A stretch of DNA of 64,000 bases from positions 20,793,846 to 20,857,845 of the forward strand of contig NC_090414.1 of assembly GCF_036365525.1 (NCBI RefSeq), written 5' to 3'. This document shows positions 4,033 to 49,685 of this stretch, piece by piece. The notes beneath the pieces were generated by a model, which did not search any database, had not been told where the DNA came from, and worked only from the letters and a program-made list of their open reading frames with translations. A program made the translations under genes and the position numbers. Origin of the DNA: Heterodontus francisci. Lineage: Eukaryota. The first letter of the stretch is position 1. Every line of letters begins with the position of its first letter.

Positions 4033-4305
4033 GGACTCTGCGAGCTCTGGGCAGCATCATGGTAAGCAGAATTCAGAACTCACTGGAGGGAAGGAATTGT
4101 CAGTAAAGGCAGGTTGACTGAGAATACTGGACCCCACTGAGCCTGGACACTGACCCTAACCAGGGCCCTTGAACACATTCACTACAGCCCTTGACATGTC
4201 CTGCCACAATCCACCTGTTCTGAAAATAAATAAGGACAAAAGCGACATTGCTGGACTGAGAGAGTTCCATTTAACAGCATAAACTGGAACAGTGTAGAGG
4301 GAGCT

Positions 4306-6789
4306 TTACTTGGTGGCAAATACAGGGGGCGGGGCCAAAGTGACCAACCGGTACCACAACATGGAGGCCACCAGTTGGTTTATGACCAACGCTCGGCCCC
4401 TGTAGGAAAGCACTCGGAGCAGTCCTGTCCAGCGCCCCAGCCGAGCGGTGACTTTCGCCTCCAACTCCTGCCAGTTTGCCGGCCAGGCTTCCTCAGCGGG
4501 GCTAAGGTGGACTCCCAGATAGAGGAGGTGCGTGGTGCTCCACGCAAAAGGTGTCATCTCCTCCGGCAGGGAGTCCACCCGCCACTGACCAACCAGGAGT
4601 CCGGAACATTTCTCCCAATTGATCCTCGCGGAGGACGCGGCAGAAAAGGTCTGCTGGCAGTCGCGCATCCTCCGCAAGTCAACGGGATCTGTGATTGCGA
4701 GGAGCACGTCGTCGGCGTAAGCCGAGAGGACGACCCGCATGGCCGGCTCGCGCAGAGCCAATCCCGTCAACCTCCTGCGAAGCAGGCACAGGAAGGGCTC
4801 CACGCAGATGGTATACAATTGGCCGGACATGGGGCACCCCTGACGCACTCCTCTCCCAAATCGAAGGGGCGCCGTCAAGGACCCGTTAACTTTGACTAGA
4901 CACTCTGCGGCGGCGTATAAAAGTCGGACCCGGGCCACGAAATGCGGCCCGAGTCCGAAAGCGCGCAGAGTCCCGAAAAGGTAATCGTGATCCACCCTGT
5001 CGAACGCCTTCTCCTGATCGAGGGAGAGAAAGGCGACCGACTGACCAGTCCTCTGGGAAAGATGGATCAGGTCCTGGACCAGGTGGATGTTGTCCTGGAT
5101 GGACCGGCCTGGGACCGTGTAGGACTGGTCGGGGTGGATCATGTGGGCCAGCACGGAGCCCAGGCGGGTAGACATAGCCCGGGCAAAGATCTTATAATCC
5201 GTGCTGAGGAGGGAGACCGGACGCCAGTTTTTAAGCAGGCGGAGATCGCCCCTCTTCGGCAGCAGGACGATGACCGCCCTGCGCCACGAGAGGGGCATCT
5301 CCCCGGTCGCCAGGCTTTCCCCCAGGACCCGCGCGTAATCGTCCCCCAGGACGTCCCAGAACGCCCTGAGGAACTCCACGGTCAACCCATCCAGCCCTGG
5401 GGATTTGCCCCTCGAGAGCTGGTGGAGGGCGCCAGTCAGCTCCGCCAACGTGAGCGGAGCCTCCAATCCTTCGGCGCCCTCCGGGCTGACCTGCAGCAGG
5501 TCCTCCCACAAAACTCTGCGCGCATCCTCGCTGGACGGATCCGGAGAGAACAACGCACTGTAATACGTCCGGACCAGGAGGCCCATTCCCTCCGGATCCG
5601 TGATGGAGGATCCGTCGTCGGCCAGCAGCTCGACGAGCTGCTTACGGACCGCCCGCCATTTTTCCAGCGAGTAGAAGAAGGGTGAGGCGCGGTCCAAATC
5701 TTCCAGGATCTGGATCCGCGACCTCACGTACGCGCCTCGGGACGCTATGAGCTGCAGGTCCCTCAGCGCGCCCTTCTTCTCTTTGTACGCCTGCCACAGG
5801 GCCGGGTCCGCGACGGCATGACCGAGGCGGGATTCCAAGTCGAGCACCTCCCTCTCAAGGCGCCCGACCTCGGCTTCCCGCCTCTTGGTCGACCCCTTCG
5901 CGTACTCCTGACAGAAGACGCGGATGTGAGTCTTGCCCACATCCCACCATAGCCTCAAGGAGGGGAAGCCCCCCTGCTTCCTTCTCCAGTCGGCCCAGAA
6001 TCGACAGAACGAGTCCCGAAATCGCTCGTCCTCCAGCAGCCGGTTGTTAAAGTGCCAGTACGCGGACCCCGCCCGCGTACGGAGCGGAGTAAACTCCGCC
6101 CACACCAGGCGGTGGTCCGAGCACGGCACCAGCCGCATGTAGGCCGCCGAAACGCGGGAGACGTACGCCTGCGAAATGTAGAGGCGGTCGATTCGCGACC
6201 CTCCTCCTCCAGACCTCCACGTGAAGTCGCTGGAGTCGGGATGGAGATTCCGCCAGACGTCCACCAAGTTAAGGGAGCTGATCAGTCCCCTCAACTTCTC
6301 CACCGACGCTTGGCCGCGCTGGGGACCGGAGCGATCCCCCACCTCGAGGGTGCAGTTAAAATCCTCCCCGAGGATGATGCACTCGCCGCTATCGATGGAG
6401 CTCAAGAGAGCGGACACTTCTTCAAAGAAGCGCGCTTGCAAAGCGCCGGGCCTGGGCGCGTACACGTTCACAAAGTGGAGCGGCACGCTACCCAGGCGAA
6501 CGGCGAGGTGGAGCAAGCGGCCCGGCACTAGCTCCTTGACCCCCAAGATCTCCGGCTGAAAAGTCGGGGCCAACAAGATAGCCACCCCACTAGAAATAGG
6601 GGTGAGGTGACTCATGTAGACCCCACCCTGCCACTCCAGGAGCCAGGTGGCTTCGTCTCCCGGAACGGTGTGGGTTTCCTGCAGAAAGCTCACCGCGTAT
6701 CTCCCTTCCCTGAGGACTGAGAGATTATGAAATCTGCGGTGAGCCCCTCTGCTGCCGTTGATGTTGAGGCTGGCTATGGTTATCTTCAT
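4306..6789 (-). CDS. Tx1 ORF2 endonuclease/reverse transcriptase, 827 aa, C-terminally truncated
   Basis: APE motifs SLNING, LQETH, SGVAILL, EDFN, SRIDR, SDH; RT motifs PGLDG, KNWRPVSLL, LDQEKAFDRV, GVRQGCPMS, YADD; stop codon supplied by satellite junction. Confidence 0.93.
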   Translation of the reverse strand: MKITIASLNINGSRGAHRRFHNLSVLREGRYAVSFLQETHTVPGDEATWLLEWQGGVYMSHLTPISSGVAILLAPTFQPEILGVKELVPGRLLHLAVRLGSVPLHFVNVYAPRPGALQARFFEEVSALLSSIDSGECIILGEDFNCTLEVGDRSGPQRGQASVEKLRGLISSLNLVDVWRNLHPDSSDFTWRSGGGGSRIDRLYISQAYVSRVSAAYMRLVPCSDHRLVWAEFTPLRTRAGSAYWHFNNRLLEDERFRDSFCRFWADWRRKQGGFPSLRLWWDVGKTHIRVFCQEYAKGSTKRREAEVGRLEREVLDLESRLGHAVADPALWQAYKEKKGALRDLQLIASRGAYVRSRIQILEDLDRASPFFYSLEKWRAVRKQLVELLADDGSSITDPEGMGLLVRTYYSALFSPDPSSEDARRVLWEDLLQVSPEGAEGLEAPLTLAELTGALHQLSRGKSPGLDGLTVEFLRAFWDVLGDDYARVLGESLATGEMPLSWRRAVIVLLPKRGDLRLLKNWRPVSLLSTDYKIFARAMSTRLGSVLAHMIHPDQSYTVPGRSIQDNIHLVQDLIHLSQRTGQSVAFLSLDQEKAFDRVDHDYLFGTLRAFGLGPHFVARVRLLYAAAECLVKVNGSLTAPLRFGRGVRQGCPMSGQLYTICVEPFLCLLRRRLTGLALREPAMRVVLSAYADDVLLAITDPVDLRRMRDCQQTFSAASSARINWEKCSGLLVGQWRVDSLPEEMTPFAWSTTHLLYLGVHLSPAEEAWPANWQELEAKVTARLGRWTGLLRVLSYRGRALVINQLVASMLWYRLVTLAPPPVFATK

Positions 6790-9524
6790 GTCAAAGGTAA
6801 TTAAAACCCGTCACAAACACCTCACTGTGAGGAGGGAGTGGAAGTGCACCTGGCCCTCCACTCCCCCAGCAACCCATTGAGGAACACATTAAAACGGCGC
6901 CTCTCAACCAGTTTCACGTCCGCGCGCTTGCCCGTTATCTTAAGGGCGGCACGGACGGACTGTATGATCAGCGCCAGATTCGACCAACGGTCGAGGGCCA
7001 GCTGAACTTTATTGCGGCAACCTCTGCAAGCCGCGAGGAAATCCCGGAGTTCCGCCGTGGGGATGAGAGGAGATTCGGTGGGAGGCACGAGGGACTCCAC
7101 CACCTCACTGGCGATGGAATCAAGATCATCCTCCGTGCCCCGCACCGAATCCCCATCCTCCTCCGGGTCGTCACCGCCAGCGGCCGACACATCCACCACA
7201 CACTGTGGGGCGGACGTCCCGGCCACGCCAGCTGGTCCCGCCTCCGTCACGATCCCACCCCCAGGATCAATGGCGGAGGAGTCCTCTCTGGGTTCTATTG
7301 TGAAACTGGAGCCTGTAGGCACCAGCGGCTCAGGAACCCCCTCCACCTCCGTCCCCAGGCCAATGAGTGGTCCAGGGGAGACAGAAGTTCCGGACTCCGG
7401 GAAACCAGCCGGAGCCGAGACTTGAGGCGGCGAGAGGAGGCCATCTCCTGCTCCGCCAGCGCCCACAGGCCCAGCAGATGGGGCAGCATTCTCAGTGATA
7501 ACTGGGTCGGGGGTCTCCATGTTGGTGGTGGACTCCGGCTGGGAGGCCCGACCCTCTGGGGCCTCGCCCTCCCCTTCATTCAGGACACCCGACCCAGTAG
7601 CAGTGGCAGAATGGGCAGCTTCCCCAGGCTCCCCCACCACAAGCAGGGCCCCACTTACTCCTTCAGGAGGGGCCTCATGTACCGGGGCCATCCCCTCCCC
7701 TCCATCCTGAGGAATAGGGAGCACCTGCCCGGACTTTGCAGCCTTGGTGGTGGCGGTAGGGGAAACCTGGGGACCCGAAACAGGAGACAGCTCCCCTCCA
7801 ACAGATGGGCCCTGCGCCTCAGGGCCCCTTGTTACCTCTGTGGAGGGGTGCCTTCTCCTCTTTTTCCCAGTTGTGTGCGGAGGCTCAGAGACCTCCATAT
7901 CATCAGAGGCCTCCACCTCCACACTCTCCTTTTTTTTATTCACCCTGGGCATGAGCCCAGCCCTGGGGCAAGTTGACTTCCCGAGATCGGGCCTTGGGCT
8001 GAGCTCAGGCTCGGGTAGTGTCACGATATCCAGGGGACGCGCCTCTCGATGTTTATTCCTCCTCCGCGCCTTCCTTCCACTTGGACGGTCACCCCCCTCC
8101 CTGCCGGAGGCTGTGGTTTTCACAGTGTAGTGGGGGTGGGAGGAGGTGCAGCGTCGCCACCCTGGGCCGCTGAGTTGGAGTTGGCAGCCGGGAGGTTGGG
8201 GCAGTTCTTACGAACATGCCCCATCCCCTTACAGACATGGCACCGCACCCCGTCCAAGGTCCAGAAGACGCGGTAGGCCGTCCCCTGGAATTCTACATTA
8301 AAGTGGCCCTCTGTCACCTCCTCCCGCGCCAGCTGCATGAATAACTGGCAGCGGAAGGAGTACACATGTCGGAGGCTGTTCTCCCGAAGACCGAGCGGGA
8401 CTGGGGTGAGCCCCGTCTTTACCTCCCCCAGATGGTGCAGGTGGGGAAGGAGGAGCTCACCAGGAATGAAGGGCGGGACATTGGATAAAATGAGCCTTTG
8501 CGCAGTGGCCTCCAGGGGGTCCACTGGCAGAAAGGTCCCGCCCACGGTGAGCCCCTTGCTCAGAGCCAGGGACACCGCCCGCTCGGTCTTCAAAAAGAAC
8601 ACAGCCTTCCCATACATCTTTGAGGCCACAACAATGGCCGAGGGGCCGACAACCACGGCCATTGCCTTAACGCAGGCCTCAATAGACATTTTGGGGTGGG
8701 GATAGCTCTTCACCCCATGGCTGCATGTCAACAATTTAAAGGGTGACGGGGCCACGTGGGCAGCCACAGAAGCTGCAGCTGCGTAGGTAGTAGAGGGCCC
8801 GGCCACCGGTGATGAAGGGCTTGCCATGGGTCCAAGAGCTAAACCCACCCCAAATTGTGGACTTGCACACCAAATATCAGCGATTTAACTGAAAATATTG
8901 AATATATATTAAAGACAAACAAACAAACAACAAATTAGTGGAGAGGCTGAGGTAATAGAGGAGAGGCAAAGGCAGGCTGGAAGGGATGACTTGCTTTCTG
9001 GAGGTGGTGCTCACAGTACACTTAAAACAGTCTTTGAAGTTGGTCTTCCGGTCTTCTGGTTGGGGGAGTCGTCTTCACCTGGGTCAGCTGAAGCTGCCCA
9101 GGCACTATCTATCCCCTTCCGTCTGTTTAGCTGGGCAGCTTCAGCTGACCCAGGCTTGGCAATTGGGGTGGGGAGGGAGCTTCCCTGTGTGCTTGTGCAG
9201 CAGCACAGATTCCTGTTGAATTGGCAGCCCCACCCCTTGTTGTTCCAGCCACTTGTTCTTCCCCCAACAGTCCAAAGTAAATTACTGGTGTTCAGCACCC
9301 ACCTCCAGACAAAGCCTTGTATCCAACAAAAAAAGAATGTCGCTTTCTTCTCTTTTAAAGGTGATTGTTGTTGGAGTTTTCCTCTGCTTGTTGGTAGCTG
9401 CTCTCCCTTGCTCAGTGCAGCTCCTCTCTCCACCTCTGCAACCTCCAACTGTCACCAGCACTCTCAGCTACACCTCGTTGAGGCTCTCAACACTCAGGCT
9501 TCCCAAATCAGAGAGCAGCCAATC
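4311..9524 (-). mobile_element. Tx1-clade (L1 group) non-LTR retrotransposon; 5' end present, 3' part lost; both ends join the 70-bp satellite
   Basis: ~680-bp 5' UTR, ORF1 with CCHC knuckle, ORF2 APE+RT; satellite at 4289-4310 and from 9528. Confidence 0.92.
6822..8848 (-). pseudogene. Tx1 ORF1 (gag-like), split by a frameshift near 8123-8130
   Basis: 242-aa ORF with CHVCKGMGHVRKNC zinc knuckle overlaps a 433-aa ORF in another frame that ends 32 bp before the ORF2 ATG. Confidence 0.8.
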
Positions 9525-9527
9525 GCA

Positions 9528-9598
9528 GTGCTGTACCTGTCCTGGGAGTGTTTGATGGGGACAGTGTCGAGGGAGCTTTACTCTGTATCTAACCCCCG
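9528..9598 (+). repeat. Single 70-bp satellite unit between insertions
   Basis: GTGCTGTACCTGTCC...TCTAACCCCCG. Confidence 0.95.
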
Positions 9599-9687
9599 TT
9601 TTTTTTTTTTTTCTGACTGCAGCACTGTCAGCTGCACCTCGTTGAGGCACTCAGCACTCAGTATTCCCAATCAGAGAGGAGCCAATC
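9599..9687 (-). mobile_element. Short retroposed copy of a Tx1 5' leader with A14 tail
   Basis: T14 at 9599-9612, then 75 bp resembling 9455-9524 (CACCTCGTTGAGG..CACTCAG..TCCCAA..TCAGAGAG..GCCAATC). Confidence 0.75.
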
Positions 9688-9731
9688 CCCGTTTTTTTTT
9701 TAGAGGGAGCTTTACTCTGTATCTAACCCCG

Positions 9732-10610
9732 TTTTTTTTTTATATAAGGTGACCTTTCTACCCCAGGCCCCTTTTATATTTTTCACGTCGAGGGGGCCTT
9801 TATTCCTCAGGCCCCCTTTATGTACATATTTACAGTTTTAAAATAACTTTATTAAAACCAGATAAATAAACAAAAAGCTCAAATTAAAATGCCATTCTCG
9901 GCGTCGACAATGCACTCCAGTCCCTGCGGTGCCCACCGGTCGCGGAAGGCCTCAAGCGTACCGGCGGACACCGCATGCTCCTTTTCCAGGGACACCCGGG
10001 CGCGAACGTAACCGCGGAAGAGGGGCAGGCAATCGGGGAGGACGGACCCCACGACGGCCCGCAACCTGGACCTGTGAATTGCCACCTTGGCCAGGCCCAG
10101 GAGCAGACCGACGAGGAGATCCTCCTCCCGGCCCAAGCCCCTCCGCACCGGGTGCCCAAAGATCAGGAGCGTGGGACTGAAGTGCAGCCAGAATTTGAGG
10201 AGCAGCCCCTTCAGATACTCAAATAGGGGCTGCAACCTCGCACACTCCGTATAAATGTGGAACACGGACTCGTCCAGGACGCAGAAAGGCCCCGAAACCC
10301 TCCTCGGGAGCCGGTCCCGCACAACCCGAGCCGCCTCTCGGAAATGCCCTCCGTGCCATTCCAATCGGCGCGGAGGGGTTTCCTGTACGGGCTGCTCCTG
10401 CACACTCTCCACTTCCTCGCCCTCGTCAGCCGGCCGGACACGCCCTGGCGGTCCATGTTGCCATCTGGCGGCGAGGGGAAACCCCGATGGAGGTCTCTCT
10501 CCGCGGGAGTCTTCCCCCTTTACATAGGGGACCTGGGGTGGAGGGTGCTGCACAGAGCAGTCCCGTGCAATAGGCTTTTAAGTAGGTTCACGGACTCCCA
10601 GGCCACCTGT
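9732..10610 (-). mobile_element. 5'-truncated, 5'-inverted Tx1 copy (ORF2 C-terminus, 3' UTR, poly(A))
   Basis: T10 at 9732-9741; minus strand PFCVLDESVFHIYTEC..NGILI* from 10289; plus strand 10290-10610 ..GDLGWRVLHRAVPCNRLL..SQATC; flanking CTGTATCTAACCCC(C)G duplication. Confidence 0.88.
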
Positions 10611-11100
10611 ATCTAACCCCCGTGCTGTACCTGTCCTGGGGAGTGTTTGATGGGGACAGTGTAGAGGGAGCTTTACTCTGTATCTAACCCCCGTGCTGTA
10701 CCTGTCCTGGGAGTGTTTGATGGGGACAGTGTAGAGGGAGCTTTACTCTGTATCTAACCCCCGTACTGTACCTGTCCTGGGGAGTGTTTGATGGGGACAG
10801 TGTAGAGGGAGCTTTACTCTGTATCTAACCCCCGTACTGTACCTGTCCTGGGGAGTGTTTGATGGGGACAGTGTAGAGGGAGCTTTACTCTGTATCTAAC
10901 CCCGTACTGTACCTGTCCTGGGAGTGTTTGATGGGGACAGTGTAGAGGGAGCTTTACTCTGTATCTAACCCCCGTGCTGTACCTGTCCTGGGAGTGTTTG
11001 ATGGGGACAGTGTAGAGGGAGCTTTACTCTGTATCTAACCCCGTACTGTACCTGTCCTGGGAGTGTTTGATGGGGACAGTGTAGAGGGAGCTTTACTCTG
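10607..11100 (+). repeat. 70-bp satellite array (~7 units)
   Basis: Same unit as 1-935. Confidence 0.97.
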
Positions 11101-13380: not shown

Positions 13381-13800
13381 TCTGTAACCTCCTCCAGCCC
13401 CTACAACCCTCCCTATCTCTGTAACCTCCTCCATCCCCTACAACACTCCCTATCTCTGTAACCTCCTCCAGCCCCTACAACCCTCCCTATCTCTGTAACC
13501 TCCTCCATCCCCTACAACACTCCCTATCTCTGTAACCTCCTCCATCCCCTACAACCCTCCCTATCTCTATAACCTCCTCCATCCCCTACAACCCTCCCTA
13601 TCTCTATAACCTCCTCCAGCCCCAACAACCCTCCCTATCTCTGTAACCTCCTCCAGCCCCAACAACCCTCCCTATCTCTGTAACCTCCTCCAGCCCCTAC
13701 AACCCTCCCTATCTCTCTAACCTCCTCCAGCCCCAACAACCCTCCCTATCTCTGTAACCTACTCCAGCCCCTACAACCCTCCCTATCTCTGTAACCTCCT
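13381..13800 (+). repeat. 37-bp minisatellite derived from L2 ORF2
   Basis: Unit CTCTGTAACCTCCTCCAGCCCCTACAACCCTCCCTAT, continuous with the L2 3' end that follows. Confidence 0.93.
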
Positions 13801-14130
13801 CCAGCCCCCACAACCCTCCGAGATCTCTGCGCTCCTCCAATTCCGTCCTCTTGTCCATCCCCCGATTCCCATCTCTCCACCATTGCCGGCCGTGCCTTCA
13901 GCTGCCTGGGGCCCTAAGCTCTGGAATTCCCTCCCTAAACCTCTCCGTCTCTCTCTCTCCTCCTTTAAGACGCTCCTTAAAAACCGACCTCTTTGACCGA
14001 GCTTTTGGTCGCCTGTCCCTAATATCTCCTGATGTGGCTCGGGGTCAAATTCTGTCTGATTTACGCTCCTGGGAAGCACCTTGAGATGTAATACCAGGTT
14101 AAAGGTGCGAGATAAATGCAAGTGGTTTGC
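13800..14130 (+). mobile_element. L2-like LINE 3' end
   Basis: Encodes remnant GRAFSCLGP.LWNSLPKPLRL..SFKTLLK typical of L2 ORF2 C-terminus. Confidence 0.75.
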
Positions 14131-14329: not shown

Positions 14330-16650
14330 AACTGTGAGAAAGGCTTTGCATTACTTTAGCCCCTTTCACATTCTCCGGACGTCCCAAAGTGCTGCACAGC
14401 CAGTCAAGTACTTTTCTGAGGCGCGTTGTCACTGCTGTGATGTAGGAAACGCAGCAGCCGAGTTGCGCACAGCAAGATCCCACAAACATCGATGAGGTAA
14501 TGACCCAGATCGTCCGCTTTTTCACCAGTGATGTTGGTTGAGGGATAAATATTGGCCCCAGGACACCGGGGAGAACCCCCCCCCCCCCCACTTCCCCCGC
14601 CCCCTCTCTTCAAAATAACGGGGATGGGATCTTTAATGTCCACCTGAGAGGGCTGGAGGGGTTTCGGTTTAACGTTGCATGTGAAAGATGGCACCTCCAA
14701 CAGTGCGGCACTCCCTCAGTACTGACCCTCCGACAGTGCGGCACTCCCTCAGTACTGACCCTCCGACAGTGCGGCACTCCCTCAGTACTGACCCTCCGAC
14801 AGTGCGGCACTCCCTCAGTACTGACCCTCCGACAGTGCGGCACTCCCTCAGTACTGACCCTCCGACAGTGCGGCACTCTCTCAGTACTGACCCTCCGACA
14901 GTGCGGCACTCCCTCAGTACTGACCCTCCGACAGTGCGGCACTCCCTCAGTACTGACCCTCCGACAGTGCGGCACTCCCTCAGTACTGACCCTCCGACAG
15001 TGCGGCACTCCCTCAGTACTGACCCTCCGACAGTGCGGCGCTCCCTCAGTACTGACCCTCCGACAGTGCGGCACTCCCTCAGTACTGACCCTCCAACAGT
15101 GCAGCGCTCCCTCAGTACTGACCCTCCGACAGTGCGGCACTCCCTCAGTACTGACCCTCCGACAGTGCGGCACTCCCTCAGTACTGACCCTCTGACAGTG
15201 CGGCACTCCCTCAGTACTGAACCTCCGACAGTGCGGCGCTCCCTCAGTACTGACCCTCCGACAGTGCGGCACCCCCTCAGTACTGACCCTCCGACAGTGC
15301 GGTGCTCCCTCAGTACTGACCCTCCGACAGTGCAGCACTCCCTCAGTACTGACCCTCCGACAGTGCGGCACTCCCTCAGTACTGACCCTCCAACAGTGCA
15401 GCGCTCCCTCAGTACTGACCCTCCGACAGTGCGGCACTCCCTCAGTACTGACCCTCCAACAGTGCGGCACTCCCTCAGTACTGACCCTCCGACAGTGCGG
15501 CGCTCCCTCAGTACTGACCCTCCGACAGTGCGGCACTCCCTCAGTACTGACCCTCCGATAGTGCGGCACTCCCTCAGTACTGACCCTCCGACAGTGCGGC
15601 AATCCCTCAGTACTGACCCTCCGACAGTGCGGCACTCCCTCAGTACTGACCCTCCAACAGTGCAGCGCTCCCTCAGTACTGACCCTCCGACAGTGCGGCA
15701 CTCCCTCAGTACTGACCCTCCGACAGTGCGGCACTCCCTCAGTACTGACCCTCCGACAGTGCGGCACTCCCTCAGTACTGACTCTCCGACAGTGCAGCAC
15801 TCTCTAAGTACTGACCCTCCGACAGTACGGCACTCCCTCAGTACTGAACCTCCGACAGTGCAGCACTCTCTAAGTACTGACCCTCCGACAGTGCGGCACT
15901 CCCTCAGTACTGACCCTCCGACAGTGCGGCACTCCCTCAGTACTGACTCTCCGACAGTGCGGCACTCCCTCAGTACTGACCCTCTGACAGTGCGGCACTC
16001 CCTCAGTACTGACCCTCTGACAGTGCGGCACTCCCTCAGTACTGACCCTCCGACAGTGCGGCACTCCCTCAGTACTGACCCTCCGACAGTGCGGCACTCC
16101 CTCAGTACTGACTCTCCGACAGTGCAGCACTCTCTAAGTACTGACCCTCCGACAGTACGGCACTCCCTCAGTACTGAACCTCCGACAGTGCAGCACTCTC
16201 TAAGTACTGACCCTCCGACAGTGCGGCACTCCCTCAGTACTGACCCTCCGACAGTGCGGCACTCCCTCAGTACTGACTCTCCGACAGTGCGGCACTCCCT
16301 CAGTACTGACCCTCCGACAGTGCGGCACTCCCTCAGTACTGACTCTCCGACAGTGCGGCACTCCCTCAGTACTGACCCTCCGACAGTGCGGCACTCCCTC
16401 AGTACTGACCCTCCGACAGTGCGGCACTCCCTCAGTACTGACTCTCCGACAGTGCAGCACTCTCTAAGTACTGACCCTCCGACAGTGCGGCACTCCCTCA
16501 GTACTGACTCTCCGACAGTGCGGCACTCCCTCAGTACTGACCCTCTGACAGTGCGGCACTCCCTCAATACTGCACTGGGAGTGTCGGCCTGGACTTTGTC
16601 CTCAAGTCTCTGGACTGGGGCTCAAACCCAGAACCTTCTGACTGTAAGAG
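14330..16650 (-). mobile_element. tRNA-derived Deu-domain SINE with internal 33-bp expansion
   Basis: B-box-like GGTTTGAGCCC head near 16625; body matches other copies at ~29400-29750, 42060-42400, 50295-50690 and 53300-53770. Confidence 0.72.
14697..16570. repeat. 33-bp minisatellite (~57 copies)
   Basis: Unit CCGACAGTGCGGCACTCCCTCAGTACTGACCCT. Confidence 0.97.
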
Positions 16651-17309: not shown

Positions 17310-17590
17310 ACAACTCGCCTTCACATAGCGTGGTTAACTCAGTAAAACATCCCGCAAGCCACATAAGGAGATATTAGGGACAGGCGACCAAAAGCTCGGT
17401 CAAAGAGGTCGGTTTTTAAGGAGCGTCTTAAAGGAGGGGAGAGAGAGGCGGAGAGGTTTAGGGAGGGAATTCCAGAGCTTAGGACCCCAGGCAGCTGAAG
17501 GCACGGCCGCCAATGGTGGAGCGATGGGAATCGGGGGATGGACAAGAGGGCGGAATTGGAGGAGCGCAGAGATCTCGGAGGGTTGTGGGG
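17310..17590 (-). mobile_element. L2-like LINE 3' end, inverted relative to the 13.8-kb copy
   Basis: Reverse complement of 13800-14040. Confidence 0.75.
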
Positions 17591-18692
17591 GCTGGAGGAG
17601 GTTACAGAGATAGGGAGGGTTGTAGGGGCTGGAGGAGGTTTCGGAGATAGGGAGGGTTGTAGGTGCTGGAGGAGGTTTCGGAGATAGGGAGGGTTTTAGG
17701 TGCTGGAGGAGGTTACAGAGATAGGGAGGGTTGTAGGTGCTGGAGGAGGTTAGAGAGATAGGGAGGGTTGTTGGTGCTGGAGGAGGTTAGAGAGATAGGG
17801 AGGGTTGTAGGTGCTGGAGGAGGTTAGAGAGATAGGGAGGGTTGTAGGTGCTGGAGGAGGTTAGAGAGATAGGGAGGGTTGTTGGTGCTGGAGGAGGTTA
17901 CACAGATAGGGAGGGTTGTAGGTGCTGGAGGAGGTTACAGAGATAGGGAGGGTTGTAGGTGCTGGAGGAGGTTAGAGAGATAGGGAGGGTTGTTGGTGCT
18001 GGAGAAGGTTACAGAGATAGGGAGGGTTGTTGGTGCTGGAGGAGGTTAGAGAGATAGGGAGGGTTGTTGGTGCTGGAGGAGGTTAGAGAGATAGGGAGGG
18101 TTGTAGGTGCTGGAGGAGGTTACAGAGATAGGGAGGGTTGTTGGTGCTGGAGGAGGTTACAGAGATAGGGAGGGTTGTTGGTGCTGGAGGAGGTTAGAGA
18201 GATAGGGAGGGTTGTTGGTGCTGGAGGAGGTTAGAGAGATAGGGAGGGTTGTAGGTGCTGGAGAAGGTTACAGAGATAGGGAGGGTTGTAGGTGCTGGAG
18301 AAGGTTACAGAGATAGGGAGGGTTGTTGGTGCTGGAGGAGGTTAGAGAGATAGGGAGGGTTGTAGGTGCTGGAGGAGGTTACAGAGATAGGGAGGGTTGT
18401 TGGTGCTGGAGGAGGTTAGAGAGATAGGGAGGGTTGTAGGTGCTGGAGGAGGTTAGAGAGATAGGGAGGGTTGTAGGTGCTGGAGAAGGTTACAGAGATA
18501 GGGAGGGTTGTAGGGGCTGGAGGAGGTTAGAGAGATAGGGAGGGTTGTGGGGGCTGGAGGAGGTTAGAGAGATAGGGAGTGTTGTAGGTGCTGGCGGAGG
18601 TTAGAGAGATAGGGAGGGTTGTAGGGGCTGGAGGAGGTTACAGAGATAGGAAGGGTTGTAGGGGCTGGAGGAGGTTACAGAGATAGGAAGGG
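17590..18692 (-). repeat. 37-bp L2-derived minisatellite (~30 copies)
   Basis: Unit GGAGGAGGTTACAGAGATAGGGAGGGTTGTAGGTGCT. Confidence 0.95.
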
Positions 18693-22630: not shown

Positions 22631-22639
22631 CTGCTGCTC

Positions 22640-24097: not shown

Positions 24098-24432
24098 TTG
24101 ATGGGGACAGTGTAGAGGGAGCTTTACTCTGTATCTAACCCAGTGCTGTACCTGTCCTGGGAGTGTTTGATGGGGGACAGTGTAGAGGGAGCTTTACTCT
24201 GTATCTAACCCCGTACTGTACCTGTCCTGGGAGTGTTTGATGGGGGACAGTGTAGAGGGAGCTTTACTCTGTATCTAACCCCGTACTGTACCTGTCCTGC
24301 GAGTGTTTGATGGGGGACAGTGTAGAGGGAGCTTTACTCTGTATCTAACCCCTGTGCTGTACCTGTCCTGGGAGTGTTTGATGGGGACAGTGTAGAGGGA
24401 GCTTTACTCTGTATCTAACCCAGTGCTGTACC
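24098..24432 (+). repeat. 70-bp satellite array (~4.5 units) in FIBP intron
   Basis: Same unit; no insert seen. Confidence 0.95.
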
Positions 24433-30290: not shown

Positions 30291-31716
30291 AGCTCCCTCT
30301 ATACTGTCCCCATCAAACACTCCCAGGACAGGTACAGTACGGGGGTTAGATACAGAGTAAAGCTCCCTCTATACTGTCCCCATCAAACACTCCCAGGACA
30401 GGTACAGCACAGGGTTAGATACAGAGTAAAGCTCCCTCTATACTGTCCCCATCAAACACTCCCCAGGACAGGTACAGTACGGGGGTTAGATACAGAGTAA
30501 AGCTCCCTCTACACTGTCCCCATCAAACACTCCCAGGACAGATACAGTACGGGGGTTAGATACAGAGTAAAGCTCCCTCTACACTGTCCCCATCAAACAC
30601 TCCCAGGACAGATACAGCACGGGGGTTAGATACAGAGTAAAGCTCCCTCTACACTGACCCCATCAAATACTCCCAGGACAGGTACAGTACGGGGTTAGAT
30701 ACAGAGTAAAGCTCCCTCTATACTGTCCCCATAAAACACTCCCCAGGACAGGTACAACACGGGGGTTAGATACAGAGTAAAGCTCCCTCTATACTGTCCC
30801 CATCAAACACTCCCCAGGACAGGTACAACACGGGGGTTAGATACAGAGTAAAGCTCCCTCTACACTGTCCCCATCAAACACTCCCAGGACAGGTACAGTA
30901 CGGGGGTTAGATACAGAGTAAAGCTCCCTCTATACTGTCCCCATCAAACACTCCCAGGACAGGTACAGCACAGGGTTAGATACAGAGTAAAGCTCCCTCT
31001 ATACTGTCCCCATCAAACACTCCCCAGGACAGGTACAGCACAGGGTTAGATACAGAGTAAAGCTCCCTCTATACTGTCCCCATCAAACACTCCCAGGACA
31101 GGTACAGTACGGGGGTTAGATACAGAGTAAAGCTCCCTCTATACTGTCCCCATCAAACACTCCCAGGACAGGTACAGCACAGGGTTAGATACAGAGTAAA
31201 GCTCCCTCTATACTGTCCCCATCAAACACTCCCCAGGACAGGTACAGCACGGGGGTTAGATACAGAGTAAAGCTCCCTCTACACTGTCCCCATCAAACAC
31301 TCCCCAGGACAGGTACAGTACGGGGGTTAGATACAGAGTAAAGCTCCCTCTATACTGTCCCCATCAAACACTCCCCAGGACAGGTACAGCACGGGGTTAG
31401 ATACAGAGTAAAGCTCCCTCTACACTGTCCCCATCAAACACTCCCCAGGACAGGTACAGCACGGGGTTAGATACAGAGTGAAGCTCCCTCTATACTGTCC
31501 CCATCAAACTCTCCCCAGGACAGGTACAGCACGGGGTTAGATACAGAGTAAAGCTCCCTCTACACTGTCCCCATCAAACACTCCCCAGGACAGGTACAAC
31601 ACGGGGGTTAGATACAGAGTAAAGCTCCCTCTATACTGTCCCCATCAAACACTCCCAGGATAGGTACAGCACTGGGAGTTGGAAAGAAAAGAAAAAAAAA
31701 AAGAAACGGGGTTAGA
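30291..31716 (-). repeat. 70-bp satellite array (~19 units, reverse orientation) with terminal A-tailed insert
   Basis: Reverse complement of unit; insert ~31673-31706. Confidence 0.96.
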
Positions 31717-34600: not shown

Positions 34601-36571
34601 NNNNNNNNNNNNNNNNNNNNNNNNNNNNNNNNNNNNNNNNNNNNNNNNNNNNNNNNNNNNNNNNNNNNNNNNNNNNNNNNNNNNNNNNNNNNNNNNNNNN
34701 NNNNNNNNNNNNNNNNNNNNNNNNNNNNNNNNNNNNNNNNNGACTCTCCAGCTTTTCTCTTCATCATCACTTCTCTCTGGTCCTCTCGCCAATGGCAGAC
34801 CCCACATGAGAGGATCAGTTAAGAATGGAGGCATGTCACATCAAACGCCCTGTGCTCTCAGGAAATCCTCTCCCCCCGGTCACCGCTCAGAGGACCCGCT
34901 GCCTGCTGACACTGGGCAAAGTGATGGACGCCCGGCCAAAGCTGCAGGGAGCAGAACACGTGACCAATCTCTGCTGGGAGGAGCTGTACTCCGAGCTGCA
35001 AAGGGCAAGAGAGCACTGATAATCTTCATTCAAACCGGGACACCCCAGCCTAATCTCCTTCTCCCTGAACCTACCAAATAACAAGAGATGCCTTCAACCA
35101 CACCATGCAACAACACAACCCACCCTCATTGCCCCTCTGAGTTCTCGATCCTGCCAGATGGTGACCTCTGTAAATAATAAACATTCAGTTCACGTTGTAC
35201 TTCAACGCGACAGTGCAGACCCACCCACTCTTCCCTAGCTCCAGGCCTTGCTCCTGTTCCAGTCTTCCTCGTGATACTGGAGAACCAGGATTGGGGAAGG
35301 CGGGTGATCGGTCGGGGATTTGCTCTGGCAAAGGAAGATGGCAGATTTCCTTCCCTAAAGGACATTAGTGAGCCGGATGGTTTTTTACCGAGAGTTCGGT
35401 AGTTTCACCATTACTGAGACTTAGCTTTTTAATTAGGATTTATTAATGAACTGAGTTTAAACTCCCCCGCTGTCATGACGGGCTCTGAGCTCGTCTCTCG
35501 GGATTACGCGTCCAGTAACATAACCACTGTGCTACCAGACAGCACAGAAACAGGCCATTTGGCCCATCCGCTCCGTGCTGGTGTTTCTGCCCCACACGAG
35601 CCTCCTCCCACCCCCGTCTCCATCTCCTTCTATTCCTTTCTCCCTCATGTGTTTATCCAGCTTCCCCTTCAATGTATCGATACTATTCACCTCGACCACT
35701 CCCCGTGGTAGCGAGTTCCACATTCTCCCCACTCTCCGGGGAAAGGAGTTTCTCCTGAATTCAGCTGCCCTCCTCTTTCTAGTCTCTGCCGGCTGATTAC
35801 ATGCACAGAACCTGGCACGGAGGCTGCTGACTAAAGCAGCCCACGACGATCACGGGTGCTGCACAGTTCGGGGGGGGGGGGGTGAGCTCCTGATTCAGTT
35901 CCCTGGAGGAAGGCCAACTGCAACTCCCTGTGTTCAGAAAACCCACAGAGGATCACAGGCCTCACCCCACCCCACCTCACCGCCAACTAAACCCCAAATC
36001 AGAGCAGGAAACGCAAAGGGGGCCCCGGCGGTTTGACCGCCTCTTTCGCGGGTGTGGGGAAACCAGCGCTGCAGGGCTGGACAGCGCCAACGGGAATGCG
36101 CGCGCTCTCGGGCCGCCCTGGGTGTCCGCCGCCCGCCATGACGATTTAGGCCGCCGTACGTTGGCAAGCCGCAAATCCGCAAAGCCATGTCCCCAGAGCA
36201 ATACCCTGGGTCTCTGGGTTACTAGTCCAGTGACAATAGCACTCTGTCACCCCCATGGCAACCCAGCTCCTGCCCAAGTTCCCATCAACATCTTTCCTTT
36301 CACGGTGAAATAATGAAGCTGAGGATTCTTGTAGGGGTTAAAGATGCAGTAAATACAGGGCCTGCAAACCCCAACAGTCAGGGTTTAGTGGTTCATACTC
36401 GGCGCCAGCTAATTATAGGCCTCCTGCTCTCAGCCTGCTCTTTACAGCAGTGACTGAAACTGTCGAAGAGCAGGCTGAGGGCGGGGGGGTGGAGAAAGTG
36501 TCGAAACTCCACTGGAATCAGTGAATCCACATGAACAGGACAGTATAAATCACAGTCTGCTCTGAGACCAC

Positions 36572-38972
36572 GCTGACCGGGGGGATCACACTGACCGGGG
36601 GGATCACACTGACCGGGGGGGGAATCACACTGACCGGGGGGGGGGGATCACACTGACCGGGGGGATCACACTGACCGGGGGGCATCACACTGACCGGGGG
36701 GATCACACTGACCGGGGGGATCACACTGACCGGGGGGATCACACTGACCAGGGGGGATATTACTGACCGGGGGGAATCACACTGACCGGGGGATCACACT
36801 GACCGGGGGATCACACTGACCGGGGGGGATATTACTGACCAGGGGGATCACACTGACCGGGGGGATCACACTGACCAGGGGGGATCACACTGACCAGGGG
36901 GGATATTACTGACCGGGGGGAATCACACTGACCAGGGGGATCACACTGACCAGGGGGGATATTACTGACCGGGGGGAATCACACTGACCAGGGGGATCAC
37001 ACAGACCCGGGGATCACACTGACCGGGGGGGGGGTCACACTGACCGGGGGGGGATCACACTGACCAGGGGGGATCACACTGACCGGGGGATCACACTGAC
37101 CGGGGGGGGGATCACACTGACCGGGGGGGGATCACACTGACCAGGGGGGATCACACTGACCGGGGGATCACACTGACCGGGGGGGGGATCACACTGACCG
37201 GGGGGATCACACTGACCAGGGGGATCACACTGACCAGGGGGGATCACACTGACCGGGGGAATCACACTGACCGGGGGGGGGATCACACTGACCGGGGGGA
37301 TCACACTGACCAGGGGGGATATTACTGACCGGGGGGAATCACACTGACCAGGGGGATCACACTGACCGGGGGGATCACACTGACCGGGGGGGTGGGGATC
37401 ACACTGACCGGGGGGGTCACACAGACCCGGGGATCACACTGACCGGGGGGGGGGGGTCACACTGACCGGGAGGGGGATCACACTGACCGGGGGGGGATCA
37501 CACTGACCAGGGGGGATCACACTGACCGGGGGATCACACTGACCGGGGGGGGATCACACTGACCAGGGGGGATCACACTGACCGGGGGGGGATCACACTG
37601 ACCGGGGGGGATCACACTGACCGGGGGGGGGGGATCACACTGACCGGGGGGATCACACTGACCGGGGGATCACACTGACCGGGGGGATCACACTGACCGG
37701 GGGGGATCACACTGACCGGGGGGTGGGGATCACACTGACCGGGGGGGTCACACTGACCCGGGGATCACACTGACCGGGGGGATCACACTGACCCGGGGAT
37801 CACACTGACCGGGGGGATCACACTGACCGGGGGGGATCACACTGACCGGGGGGGATCACACTGACCGGGGGGATCACACAGACCCGGGGATCACACTGAC
37901 CGGGGGGGATCAAACAGACCCGGGGATCACACTGACCGGGGGGATCAAACAGACCCGGGGATCACACTGACCGGGGGGATCACACTGACCGGGTGGGATC
38001 ACACAGACCCGGGGATCACACTGACCGGGGATCACACTGACCCGGGGATCACACTGACCGGGGGGATCACACTGACCCGGGGATCACACTGACCAGGGGA
38101 TCACACTGACCAGGGGATCACACTGACCGGGGGATCACACTGACCAGGGGGGTGGGGATCACACTGACCGGCGGGGTCACACAGACCCGGGGATCACACT
38201 GACCGGGGGGATCAAACAGACCCGGGGATCACACTGACCGGGGGGGATCACACTGACCGGGTGGGATCACACAGACCCGGGGATCACACTGACCGGGGGG
38301 AATCACACTGACCGGGGGGGGGGATCACACTGACCGGGGGGATCACACAGACCCGGGGATCACACTGACCGGGGATCACACTGACCGGGGGGATCACACT
38401 GACCCGGGGATCACACTGACCAGGGGATCACACTGACCAGGGGATCACACTGACCGGGGGGGATCACACTGACCGGGGGGGTGGGGATCACACTGACCGG
38501 GGGGGTCACACAGACCCGGGGATCACACTGACCAGGGGGATCAAACAGACCCGGGGATCACACTGACCGGGGGGATCACACAGACCGGGGATCACACTGA
38601 CCGGGGGGGATCACACTGACCGGGTGGGATCACACAGACCCGGGGATCACACTGACCGGGGGGAATCACACTGACCGGGGGGGGGGATCACACTGACCGG
38701 GGGGATCACACAGACCGGGGATCACACTGACCGGGGGGGATCACACTGACCGGGGGGATCACACAGACCCGGGGATCACACTGACCGGGGGGGATCACAC
38801 TGACTGGGGGATCACACTGACCGGGGGGGATCACACTGACCGGGGGGGGGGATCACACTGACCGGGGGGGATCACACTGACCGGGGGGGGGGATCACACT
38901 GACCGGGGGGAATCACACAGACCCGGGGATCACACTGACCGGGGGGGATCACACTGACCGGGGGGGGGGGGT
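36572..38972. repeat. ~19-bp minisatellite with variable G run
   Basis: Unit GATCACACTGACC(G)4-10. Confidence 0.96.
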
Positions 38973-44190: not shown

Positions 44191-44428
44191 AAGTGTCCTC
44201 AATGCCCGGGAAACCCAGTGTGCGGGAATTCAGTTTTAAAACTGTGGTAACTTTTAATGGAAACTGTGTTATGTATTTCTAAACTGTCCCACCTCCAGAG
44301 AGAAGGTAAGTTTAAGTAAACGCCCCCCCCCCCTCCCCCACCCCCTCCCACAACCCGCCTGCGTTAAATCCCAACGCGTTTGAGAAGAAGCCCACCCGGG
44401 CGTCTGAACCATTATTGTTAATGTGCAG

Positions 44429-44668
44429 ATATAAACGAGTGCGAGACCATCCCGGGCGCCTGCAAAGGGGCAATGAAGTGCTTCAATCACTACGGAGGGT
44501 ACCTGTGTCTGCCTCGCTCTGCCTCCATCATCACCCACAACGACGTGCCAAGTGACCCGGCCGCGCCCCCGCTCATCGCCCTGGAGACGAGTCAGCAGCC
44601 GCCCCTGGCTAGCGGGGCCACAGCCTGTCCGCAAGGGTACAGCCCCGACCGGGAGGAGCAGTGCGTGG
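44429..44668 (+). CDS. EFEMP2: EFEMP2 coding exon 3 (modified cbEGF)
   Basis: [39 protein letters not shown]. Confidence 0.95.
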
Positions 44669-46224: not shown

Positions 46225-46347
46225 ATGTCGACGAGTGTGAGCTGGACATCCACAGCTGCCAACCAAGTCAACAGTGCATCAACACCCTGGGAGGATATAA
46301 CTGCAAGTGTCCAGACGGGTATCAGCTGGTGGGCACGGAATGCATTG
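46225..46347 (+). CDS. EFEMP2: EFEMP2 coding exon 4 (cbEGF)
   Basis: VDECELDIHSCQPSQQCINTLGGYNCKCPDGY. Confidence 0.95.
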
Positions 46348-46369
46348 GTAAGCTACAAGCTTTTGTTTC

Positions 46370-47330
46370 TCATTCATTCTTGGGATGTGGGTGTCGCTGG
46401 CCAGGCCCAGCATTTATTGCCCATCCCTAATTGCCCTTGAGATGGTGGTGGTGAGCTGCCTTCTTGGACCGCTGCAGTCCGTGTGGGGTAGGTACACCCA
46501 CAGTGCTGTTAGGGAGGGAGTTCCAGGATTTTGACCCAGCGACAGTGAAAGAACGGCCGATATAGTTCCAAGTCAGGATGGTGTGTGACTTGGAGGGGAA
46601 CTTGCAGGTGGTGGTGTTCCCATGCATCTGCTGCCCTTGTCCTAGGTGGTAGAGGTCGCGGGTTTGGAAGGTGCTGTCTAAGGAGCCTTGGTGTGTTGCT
46701 GCAGTGCATCTTGTAGATGGTACACACTGCTGCCACTGTGTGTCGGTGGTGGAGGGAGTGAATGTTTGTAGATGGGGTGCCAATCAAGCTGGCTGCTTTG
46801 TCCTGGATGGTGTCGAGCTTCTTGAGTGTTGTTGGAGCTGCACCCATCCAGGCAAGTGGACAGTATTCCATCACACTCCTGACTTGTGCCTTGTAGATGG
46901 TGGACAGGCTTTGGGGAGTCAGGAGGTGAGTTACTCACCACAGAATTCCCAGCCTCTGACCTGCTCTTGTAGCCATGGTATTTATATGGCTACTCCAGTT
47001 CAGTTTCTGGTCAATGGTAACCCTAGGATGTTGATAGTGGGGGATTCGGAAATGGTAATGTTGTTGAATGTCAAGGGGATAATAAAAGCAAAATACTGCA
47101 GATGCTGGAAATCTGAAATAAAAACAAGAAATGCTGGAAATGCTCAGCAGGTCTGGGAGCATCTGTGGAGAAAGAAACAGAATTAACATTTCAGGTCAGT
47201 GACCTTTCATCAGAACTAGAAATGTAATAGGTTTTAAGCAAATAAAGCGGGGGTGGGGCAAGAGCTAACGGAAGGCAAAGTGAATGTCTTGGGGAGATGT
47301 TTAGATTCTCTCTTGTTGGAGATGGTCATT
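46370..47330 (-). mobile_element. CR1/L2-group LINE 3' fragment with a nested ~200-bp insertion
   Basis: MEYCPLAWMGAAPTTLKKLDTIQDKAA; second copy at ~63240-63870. Confidence 0.72.
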
Positions 47331-47627
47331 CGTACTGTTGCTAAGCAACAAGTTATTTTTGTCTGTAGAAGTTGCCAACAAGCTTTGAGCCCCTGCCTCC
47401 ACCTTTCGTGTCTGGGCTGGATTTGACCTGATGGCTCGGAGGTGAAAGGTCAATTTATGCGACACACAGGCCTAGTTCTGCTGGGTCGCTCCGCTGGGAG
47501 GGGTCAGAAGGGGGAGGTCGGAGCGATCCCAGAGATTGAATCTCCTCAAGGAGCCATCACTCGGATATTGCCCCACCTCCAAACACTCACTCACTCGCTC
47601 ACTCGCTCCTCCCGCCTTGTCTTTCAG

Positions 47628-47744
47628 ACATAAACGAGTGTCGCTTCAGGTACTGCCAGCACCGTTGTGTGAACTCACCAGGGTCATTCACGTGCCAGTG
47701 TGAACCAGGCTTCACGCTGGGGAGGGACAACCGCTCGTGTGTGG
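47628..47744 (+). CDS. EFEMP2: EFEMP2 coding exon 5 (cbEGF)
   Basis: [28 protein letters not shown]. Confidence 0.95.
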
Positions 47745-48377
47745 GTAAGTCCGCTGCTGTGCATCCCTCCTTCGCCCTCTGCCGTTCCGGCTTTCAAACA
47801 GAAACCCTTCTCTTCTCCGCCCAAAGCGAGACTGCAGACTCCGGCAGAAGGGCTACACTGAGCCTGGCCCATTCTCACCAGCCATCCCCGTCCAACTTCA
47901 ACCCACTCCCGGTCTGCTCCTGCTCTTTTGGTTGAAGAACCCCTTCTGGTCTGTTTGACGTGCTTCCTGACATCACCCCCCTAAATGGCCTGGCTCTAAG
48001 TTTAGGCTCTGCCCCCCACCCCTTCTTGTTCTGGACTCGCCCTCCCCCAACCAGTTTCTCTCTATCGACTCCTTTAATCATCTTAAACCCTCGATTAGAT
48101 CACCCCCTTAATCTTCTACCCTCGAGGAATAGAAGCCGATGGCAACCAGTCCTCGGAATTTAACCCCTTTTCGTCCCAGCATCATTCTGGTGAATCTGCA
48201 CTGCGGCCCCCCCTCCAGATTTAAAGGGACAGGCCAGCTTTTTTTGGAGACGCCGGCACCACTATTCACAGCTGGCCGCGTCAGTGGTCCTTTGAACGGT
48301 GGATACAAAAACCGCGCGCCACCAAAGCGCAGCAGGCCCCGGAACGCTCTGATATTGCAACGCTTCCCGTTTTACAG

Positions 48378-48497
48378 ATGTGAACGAGTGCGAGATGGGA
48401 GCCCGCTGTGACCAGCGCTGCATCAACACCTACGGAACGTTCCTCTGCCGCTGTGAGCAGGGCTACGAGCTGAGCAGCGACGGGCTGACCTGCCAAG
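48378..48497 (+). CDS. EFEMP2: EFEMP2 coding exon 6 (cbEGF), GC donor
   Basis: [39 protein letters not shown]; CAAG|GCAAGG. Confidence 0.88.
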
Positions 48498-49211
48498 GCA
48501 AGGACGAGTGCAGGAGAGGCAGCTACCCAACCGATAGGGTTGGAGGCCAAATGCGTTCCTGGCTGTGGGGGGAGGGGGGAGGCTGGACGGTTGGGCTGTC
48601 GGACATCCAGGGTGGGGGTGGGGTGGGTGAGGGGGCGGGAGGGGGTAATTACTGTTCCATGGGCCCCCAGGGCAGCTGAAGGCACGGCCGCCAATGGTGG
48701 AGCGACGGGAATCGGGGGGTGGACAAGAGGCCGGAATTGGAGGAGCGCAGAGATCTCGGAGGGTTGTGGGGGCTGGAGGAGGTGACAGAGATAGGGAGGG
48801 GGGGTGAGGAGGCCATGAAGGGATTTGAAAACAATTTTAAAATGGAGGCGTTGCAGGACCGGAGCCAAGGCCAGTCAGTGATCACAGGAGCGGGGTGATG
48901 GTGGGGGGGGGGGTTAGGATGGTGTTGAGTATGGCGGCCAAACATTTAGCCAACACTGCCCCTCTTGGCTTTGACATGTAGCTGGCAGTGGGGTGAGATA
49001 CTGGGAGGCGGGGAGAGGGGGTTCAGTGTTCTGTGTTCCAGCAAGGGTGTGTGTAGGGAGTGGTAAATTGTGCATGTCGGGAGTTGGAGGAGGGGAGGGG
49101 TGAGAGAAACAGGTTAAGTGCCAACCGTTGTGAAAAAGGCTATTTCTGCTGTACTTTTAACTTGCTGATCTCCCATCTCAACCCTCTCTCGCTGTCCTTT
49201 CTGTCAAGCAG

Positions 49212-49331
49212 ATATTGATGAGTGCAGCTACTCCAACTACTTGTGTCACTATCAGTGCGTGAATGAACCTGGCCGCTTCTCCTGTGTCTGTCCCGATGGG
49301 TACCAGCTTCTGGGTACCAGGATCTGCCAAG
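49212..49331 (+). CDS. EFEMP2: EFEMP2 coding exon 7 (cbEGF)
   Basis: [30 protein letters not shown]. Confidence 0.95.
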
Positions 49332-49462
49332 GTACAGTCAGTCCTCCTCCATTACTCAGCCCCTGATTTCAACCTAGATTTCTAAATGAGTTCTGAAAGG
49401 ATGTCGGTAAAATGGTCATGTTGAACTGTACCTCATTGGACCTCGCCAAGACTGTCCATCCG

Positions 49463-49685
49463 CATCAAACACTCCCAGGACAGGTACAGCACGGGGGTTA
49501 GATACAGAGTAAAGCTCCTCTACACTGTCCCATCAAACACTCCCAGGACAGGTACAGCACGGGGGTTAGATACAGAGTAAAGCTCCCTCTACACTGTCCC
49601 ATCAAACACGCCCAGGACAGGTACAGCACAAGTGTAGTATCTGTTCTTAAAAAAAAAACAGGGGTTAGATACAGAGTAAAGCTCC
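49463..49685 (-). repeat. 70-bp satellite mini-array (reverse) carrying a U2-derived insert
   Basis: ~2.7 units in EFEMP2 intron. Confidence 0.92.
49629..49658 (+). pseudogene. Retroposed U2 snRNA fragment (about nt 28-48) with A10 tail
   Basis: CAAGTGTAGTATCTGTTCTTA matches the conserved vertebrate U2 sequence as recalled (..AAGAUCAAGUGUAGUAUCUGUUCUUAUC..). Confidence 0.8.

Follow-up and report, generated by a model that had tools for sequence, protein, structure and literature searches.

Site-specific long interspersed nuclear elements (LINEs) used for gene writing, such as R2, need their own 3′ untranslated region (3′UTR), whereas L1 accepts poly(A) RNA of any origin and lands broadly. 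Here, a window of 64,000 nt from the genome (6.0 Gb) of the shark Heterodontus francisci was analysed (G000:C44:20793846-20857845), in which copies of a LINE of the Tx1L lineage appear together with short arrays of a 70-bp minisatellite (hereafter, the satellite). Poly(A)-tailed copies of this LINE and of host RNAs are joined to one base of the satellite unit in one orientation, a pattern very probably produced by a Tx1L-lineage endonuclease nicking the unit strand and a reverse transcriptase (RT) accepting any poly(A) RNA. Judged from sequence, template choice would be L1-like and targeting Tx1L-like.

Xenopus Tx1L belongs to the same lineage and also targets a repeated sequence (Tx1D) at one position (PMC4494074, PMC1950540). 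Target preference across Tx1, with Tx1L in Tx1D and a 'Sat' target class in the legend of Fig. 3, was covered by Kojima in 2015 (PMC4494074). Unlike Tx1D, the shark target appears to be a free-ended minisatellite, as 78 array ends without a tail showed no shared flank cluster and were scattered across the unit, in a sample biased to interrupted arrays. Moreover, the post-nick sequence is TG(C/T)TG in the shark vs. AGTT for Tx1L (PMC1950540), about half of the shark copies are off-site, and mRNA cargo is not described for Tx1L in the available text of PMC4494074 and PMC1950540. The crocodilian Tx1-Mar likewise prefers a target and mobilises poly(A)-tailed non-autonomous RNA including U1/U2 pieces (SINEU), often as tandem insertions around a duplication (PMC4494074). 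However, in the accessible part of that source, SINEU are propagating families of short interspersed nuclear elements (SINEs), argued not to be independent retrocopies, and Tx1-Mar groups with Keno and has a Mariner as its target, whereas the shark cargo consists of one-off spliced mRNAs and a single U2 event, and the target is a minisatellite.

With mammalian L1, the shark copies share template choice by poly(A) only, a bias to ribosomal-protein mRNAs, 5′ truncation and double tails. Mammalian L1 is described as exceptional for its mobilisation of poly(A) RNA of any kind (PMC7245038), and L1 cuts loosely at TTTT/AA genome-wide (PMC1950540), whereas a large share of the young shark retrocopies lies at one base. 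Dictyostelium TRE5-A and R2 also combine site preference with mobilisation in trans, but they require their own 3′UTR, which for TRE5-A is given as the reason why D. discoideum has no processed pseudogenes (PMC3159450).

Each ingredient has a precedent, since Tx1 targeting and Tx1-driven SINE mobilisation are known already; the combination of host mRNAs stacked at one base and a target carried to new loci was not found described. In particular, neither this shark target nor a concentration of mRNA retrocopies at a single base was found reported in the literature searched, with subscription journals and Repbase outside the search. The available parts of PMC3747384, PMC4476161, PMC10620051 and PMC13708176 hold nothing on this shark satellite target, and Tx1 is not mentioned in that of the last one, a 2026 review of gene-writing platforms. 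In a preprint, Tx1/CR1 content correlates with retrocopy counts (14,081 in cartilaginous fishes; bioRxiv 10.64898/2026.06.26.734816); neither 'satellite' nor 'shark' has a match in its available text, and its pipeline drops repeat-rich alignments and may miss copies lying on the satellite. The present data give junction-level support to its correlational claim that Tx1 sustains retrocopies outside mammals. Furthermore, the shark element appears to join a preferred site with broad acceptance of poly(A) RNA and, if so, would be a rare natural enzyme, whose endonuclease specificity and template choice are directly testable given a defined putative nick site and copies with long open reading frames (ORFs). 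The inserts are also a source of presence/absence markers.

Tail junctions at one base of the satellite

The original prediction, made from the window alone, had placed five poly(A) tails at the same position of the unit, all antisense to it. All five were found there and in that orientation, each abutting ...CTAACCC(C/T)G on the unit strand: T14 at 9599-9612, T10 at 9692-9701, T10 at 9732-9741, an A-rich tail ending at 31706 and A10 at 49649-49658. A total of 15 A or T runs of at least 10 nt occur in the window, and the five adjoining the target site are these tails. Given the anatomy of the junctions and what is known of Tx1L and L1, the unit strand would first be nicked at ...CCCG^TG(C/T)TG, and target-primed reverse transcription would then start on the poly(A) tail.

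Across the genome, the junction pattern matched 2,986 times on the forward and 1,446 times on the reverse strand (4,432), while the reversed-pattern control gave 0 matches and exact empty target sites numbered 13,998. The forward excess was probably caused by tandem amplification of one junction on contig C19, and a safer, rough figure after allowing for this array is ~2,900, in which transduced and duplicated copies are still included. At this place (~88.26 Mb; L172), a junction of ~24 nt of satellite and a T-run has become a new many-copy tandem satellite. With an anchor placed in the opposite half of the unit, T10 within 30 nt after it gave two matches, one of which was the usual site reached via a deletion. 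The site-covering anchor gave 872 forward matches, and all of the 100 listed ended at the site or a few bases away. For the opposite orientation (A10 before two anchors), 12 and 5 matches were found (17), the anchors together spanning ~60 of the 70 unit positions. These anchor searches by unit position and orientation yielded the sharp, single-orientation peak that had been predicted (4,432 vs. 2 and 17), and neither an even spread over the unit nor random orientation was seen in the anchor controls. A further search for short inserts with a tail of exactly 7 T gave 17 matches, the pattern being too narrow, and the tail-satellite junction pattern had no match in metagenome contigs.

Such a peak might also come from an assembly artefact or from the amplification of a few ancestral junctions, as the C19 array repeats one junction many times, some loci are duplicated and no read set spans the U2 insert described below. 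This is hardly credible in view of the dozens of distinct cargos with differing 5′ truncations on many chromosomes, and of the tail-plus-satellite junction type being covered by short-read contigs of three DNA runs, one of them under another organism label. The proposed confirmation in raw reads was not obtained: the evidence comes from short-read contigs, which cover the junction type and none of which spans the U2 insert.

The orientation bears on another alternative, namely a break- or structure-prone minisatellite base that any reverse transcriptase would patch with RNA copies, without sequence-specific nicking. Repair would not yield a single orientation (17 opposite matches vs. thousands), the off-site Tx1 copies carry the CA motif described below as well, and the Xenopus Tx1L endonuclease nicks its own target almost exclusively (PMC1950540), which together make this explanation very unlikely, even though the 5′ junctions are variable and small target deletions occur. 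The enrichment nevertheless goes far beyond the short off-site motif, so DNA shape or chromatin probably contributes.

The Tx1L-lineage element and the inserted cargo

All sequence tests applied place the element in the Tx1L lineage. Its long copy in the window (4311..9527, minus strand) has an intact 5′ end, an ORF1 split by a frameshift and is cut off within ORF2; its identity to a 6.6-kb copy on contig C1387 (L173), with stop-free ORF1 (680 aa) and ORF2 (1,245 aa), is 92-97%. The window ORF2 (4312..6789, minus strand) retains 826 aa with an endonuclease of the apurinic/apyrimidinic (APE) type and a reverse transcriptase, and PF03372 (APE) and PF00078 (RT) were found both in it and in the 1,245-aa ORF2. 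Compared with Xenopus Tx1L ORF2, identity was 56% over the whole query for the window ORF2 and 50% over 1,301 aligned positions for that of L173, while the closest named relatives of the window protein were from shark (91%), stingray (74%) and skate (73%). In an RT tree, a quick search of 24 rows with no named Keno, Kibi, Koshi or Mutsu row among them, the shark LINE was grouped with stingray, sturgeon, Xenopus Tx1L and turtles (Shimodaira-Hasegawa-like approximate likelihood ratio test, SH-aLRT, 99). The L173 ORF1 presents a zinc knuckle (CX2CX4HX4C) at aa 196-211, with a Pfam zf-CCHC E-value of 0.039, below the curated cut-off. Tx1 copies have a poly(A) tail and a target-site alteration, and their 5′ ends commonly start with CTGGG(A/G)TTGG.

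As had been noted from the sequence, the 5′ end of the long copy joins the satellite at 9527/9528, next to a single unit (9528..9598, plus strand) with the target site at 9598/9599. Its broken 3′ end is joined without a tail to a 22-nt satellite remnant (4289..4310, plus strand), at a unit position near 4289-4311 that differs from the target site, probably due to a deletion after insertion. On C1387 (L173-L174; G000:C1387:258000-275000), Tx1 copies of nearly full length, which have long ORFs and tails reaching 35 A, lie head to tail, some of them joined tail directly to 5′ end, and the array looks very young.

A total of 142 junction matches were classed, these being the first-listed ones on contigs C1-C4, in a 264-kb stretch around the window and in L112. 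They comprised 65 Tx1 3′ ends, 59 'bare' tails, one Tx1 5′ leader and 17 others, including two that were not satellite junctions, a further leader and two with an identical U2 piece. Host-derived inserts accounted for 13 distinct cases among 140 junctions (9%), which would correspond to ~260 genome-wide when scaled to 2,900 junctions. Among them were a full RPS26 ORF, ferritin, 3′UTRs that have poly(A) signals and both entire and partial copies of a tRNA-type SINE, tentatively labelled HE1. A shark SINE of that name appears in a table of PMC3747384. Moreover, a search for poly(A) signals near the tail gave 420 and 144 matches, to which Tx1 and the C19 array contributed many, and 28 loci chosen as non-Tx1-looking among the 100 listed added RPS14 (twice), RPS27 and SAP18 stacked with RPL38 (Pfam), as well as RPL21, RPS12, RPS3A and RPL35A (PDB sequence matches). 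An Rfam scan of 18 cargo loci gave three sub-threshold matches, none accepted, and identified no U1, U6, 5S, 7SL or rRNA cargo, although short pieces would escape it. Inserts of mixed origin with A tails, as predicted, are therefore found at the peak (Tx1, ribosomal-protein mRNAs, ferritin, SAP18, 3′UTRs, SINE and U2). In this second step, the cargo is mostly the element's own RNA, with ~9% of host RNA biased to abundant mRNAs. The proposed writing of cellular RNAs into the satellite is supported genome-wide, with the same orientation and probably in trans; in the window, only the U2 fragment is cellular.

The RPS26 copy has no introns and matches, at 100% identity, three exons that two introns separate in the parent; it presents a complete stop-free ORF and equals the parent over the matched exons (L020:1580-1927, minus strand). 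The RPS14 and RPL21 parent genes are each split by an intron, tails are absent from the parents, and a 364-nt 3′UTR insert has a single parent (99% identity), without tail and without satellite nearby. Hence, the RPS26, RPS14 and RPL21 copies and the 3′UTR case show the marks of processed pseudogenes (lost introns, untemplated tail and a parent elsewhere). The retrocopies at the target base were 7 of 11 for RPS14, 1 of 6 for RPL21 (a seventh, split match being left out) and 2 of ~9 for RPS26 (six copies on contig C17 being one event), proportions that are inflated since these genes were picked for already having one on-site copy. The least diverged RPS26 retrocopies were the two on-site ones. 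The six C17 copies (L178-L183, 68.9-69.2 Mb) are one old retrocopy repeated at ~45-50-kb spacing in a segmental tandem duplication, and two RPS14 retrocopies (L248 and L255), with different 5′ truncations, lie between satellite and a Tx1 5′ end.

Host and Tx1 inserts share the site, the polarity and near-blunt junctions, 31 of the 45 long inserts having an offset of −9 to +7. Two machineries could nonetheless be imagined, Tx1 opening the site and leaving T-tracts that an ordinary L1-type element later uses to insert host mRNAs. Dispersed retrocopies without satellite do exist, making another source possible, many inserts are stacked beside older tails, and duplication lengths differ on-site and off-site. 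However, the RPS12, RPL21, RPS14, RPS27, RPL35A, SAP18 and U2 inserts are bordered at their 5′ side by intact satellite free of tails, with a duplication of 0-7 bp, which means that no T-tract was there beforehand, and the cut falls after G rather than within TTTT/AA, which renders this alternative improbable.

Stacks were observed as well, such as SAP18 and RPL38 with target remnants between the inserts (L152). As the upstream half of the target survives, the site would be reused and inserts would stack in order of arrival. The original prediction compared this to spacer acquisition, and the likeness holds for the architecture only, as repeat-insert-repeat stacks and one junction used repeatedly are common to both. 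Unlike CRISPR, the shark arrays lack an integrase and a cas gene, their inserts vary in length (from 9 to >865 nt), and signs of processing or function are absent. Moreover, Rfam gave no match in the window at E 0.1, the U2 piece being too short for detection. Nothing suggests a memory or defence function, and the stacks are regarded as a by-product of retrotransposition.

The insert ending at 49658 had been called U2, and its 19 nt at 49630-49648 are indeed identical to nt 29-47 of the U2 small nuclear RNA gene of the same genome, followed by A10 at the target base with a 1-nt duplication (49630..49658, plus strand). The adjacent satellite remnant, which runs to 49685, and the unique intronic flank beyond it (49659..49789 in all, plus strand) recur with the U2 piece on C1387, where a Tx1 tail is followed by four units, the U2 piece, ~100 nt of the window intron flank to 49789 and a new tail; one short-read contig also ends at 49789. 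As no Tx1 is present in the window array carrying the U2 piece, the source Tx1 of this transduction would once have been at that array, in another allele or since lost. Recurrent U2 capture was rejected, as only two copies exist and the second is a transduction of the first; a SINEU-like U2 family was rejected because the piece is not multi-copy; and C1387 is not the other haplotype of the window locus, being a tandem Tx1 array with a transduced piece. Separately, a 16-nt on-site insert (G000:C2295:43556-43606) starts like the Tx1 leader and has its last eight bases as in the U2 piece, by chimerism or chance. On contig C41 (L113-L124), U2 genes form tandem arrays with spacings that are multiples of ~577 bp, plus a wider-spaced cluster.

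Off-site copies and read-through

One Tx1 3′-end variant with its tail gave 597 forward matches, of which those listed on C1-C3, the three largest contigs, with little satellite in their interiors, correspond to 61 distinct places; 53 of these were examined and classed by eye. The satellite site was occupied in 26 of them (7 at array edges and less sure), while 27 were off-site, of which 12 carried a second tail along with 5 to ~120 nt of satellite and 15 had no satellite. The share exceeds the 20% of flanks that Kojima's rule asks for, whereas strict site specificity, with nearly all copies on target, was not observed. The claim that a Tx1-group LINE targets the satellite thus stands for one favoured base genome-wide, the site being preferred and not fixed.

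Off-site copies presented exact duplications of 8-16 bp (mostly 13-15 bp), found at 14 of 29 loci tested, one of them in degenerate satellite (L209), while on-site duplications are mostly 1-5 bp. In 13 of these 14 copies CA precedes the cut (P = 1.6e−7 for C alone), as at the satellite site, and 5 of 14 have the full CANCA of that site. The simplest reading would be a single endonuclease that recognises a short core motif and, in addition, strongly prefers the satellite. About half of the copies land off-site, at an abbreviated form of the satellite motif (CA preceding the cut on the element strand). Some of them bring satellite along; new targets would arise in this way, a possible dispersal route for the minisatellite.

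Double-tailed copies show that weak 3′ ends let transcripts extend 10-300 nt into satellite, the leader of a neighbouring Tx1 or unique flanking sequence before another tail is added. Satellite followed by a second tail also lies behind off-site Tx1 copies, where it must have arrived with the RNA, and pieces of leader plus tail (10 to 129 nt) lie directly behind Tx1 tails in tandem arrays. Furthermore, the satellite resumed 25-50 nt back in the unit for 34 of 47 short 'bare' inserts vs. 8 of 45 long inserts (Fisher P = 1.2e−7, tandem-amplified copies being counted among the former), and read-through would explain most 'bare tails'.

In the window, this concerns three adjoining pieces on the minus strand: an A14 tail with 74 nt of Tx1 5′ leader (88% identity to the long copy) and a 5-nt target remnant (9599..9691), an A10 tail with 30 nt of satellite (9692..9731), and an A10 tail with an 865-nt 5′-truncated Tx1 3′ end and a 16-nt duplication at its 5′ junction (9732..10606). 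A fourth (31672..31706, plus strand) is an 11-nt piece matching the Tx1 5′ terminus, with one extra base, and an A-rich tail. The leader at 9613-9686 is likely read-through into a downstream Tx1, and 9692-9731 is likely 3′-transduced satellite RNA (30 nt) with a second tail. The piece at 31672-31682 is likely the Tx1 5′ terminus, short abortive transcripts being a possible alternative. Given the off-site double tails, the leader-tail pieces and the common Tx1 5′ start, 9599-10606 may be a single serially transduced RNA inserted once, and the five tails may represent three events. Of the identities first proposed, the Tx1 3′ end and U2 were upheld; the 'bare tail' is better read as transduced satellite, the leader as probable read-through and the 'unknown piece' as a likely Tx1 5′ end.

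As for the whole system, a broader scheme is put forward tentatively, as one joint proposal. Tx1 ORF2 would be a writer of any poly(A) RNA at one preferred site, responsible for a large share of the young retrocopies; 3′ transduction would move units to new loci and satellite RNA would retro-insert into arrays, so that the LINE and the minisatellite would each help the other to spread, with the germline transcriptome being recorded in the stacks by arrival order. Nicking, trans-mobilisation and self-seeding are here what we infer. Several points weigh against the account given above. Enzyme activity is deduced from sequence; no short-read contig crosses the U2 insert; and junction counts overstate independent events owing to transductions, segmental duplications and one tandem amplification. 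Moreover, most RPS26 and RPL21 retrocopies are off-site, 11 of 15 off-site ribosomal-protein retrocopies show no clear duplication or motif, the other 4 having short and doubtful duplications, and the gap in duplication length between on-site and off-site copies could reflect two machineries.

Window setting of the satellite

The window contains CCDC85 exons, FIBP exons and one exon of a calcium-binding EGF gene, presumably fibulin/EFEMP2-like by synteny. The 70-bp unit forms short intronic and intergenic arrays, with 8.2 kb of satellite within the 264 kb around the window. These include an insertion-free array of 13.3 units with empty targets (1..936, plus strand), 7 units at 10607..11100 (plus), an empty array of 4.8 units (24098..24432, plus) and one of 19.8 units (30291..31671, minus), the last two inside a FIBP intron, and 2.4 units (49463..49629, minus) in the intron 3′ of the calcium-binding EGF exon. 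The repeat is not confined to the H. francisci genome, as a predicted catshark protein includes a translated unit (one match among 8,000 scored candidates) and a contig under a second organism label carries the array end and flank of window 49663-49857.

Five other homogeneous minisatellites appear in the window, at 13381-13819 (37 bp), 14694-16572 (33 bp), 17577-18692 (37 bp), 36569-38965 (18 bp) and 54073-54798 (24 bp), none with an A or T run of at least 8 nt inside it. Finally, public gene models of sharks and rays (P0113, P0034, P0083 and P0039) have pieces of satellite or Tx1 ORF2 as false exons, a caution for shark gene annotation.

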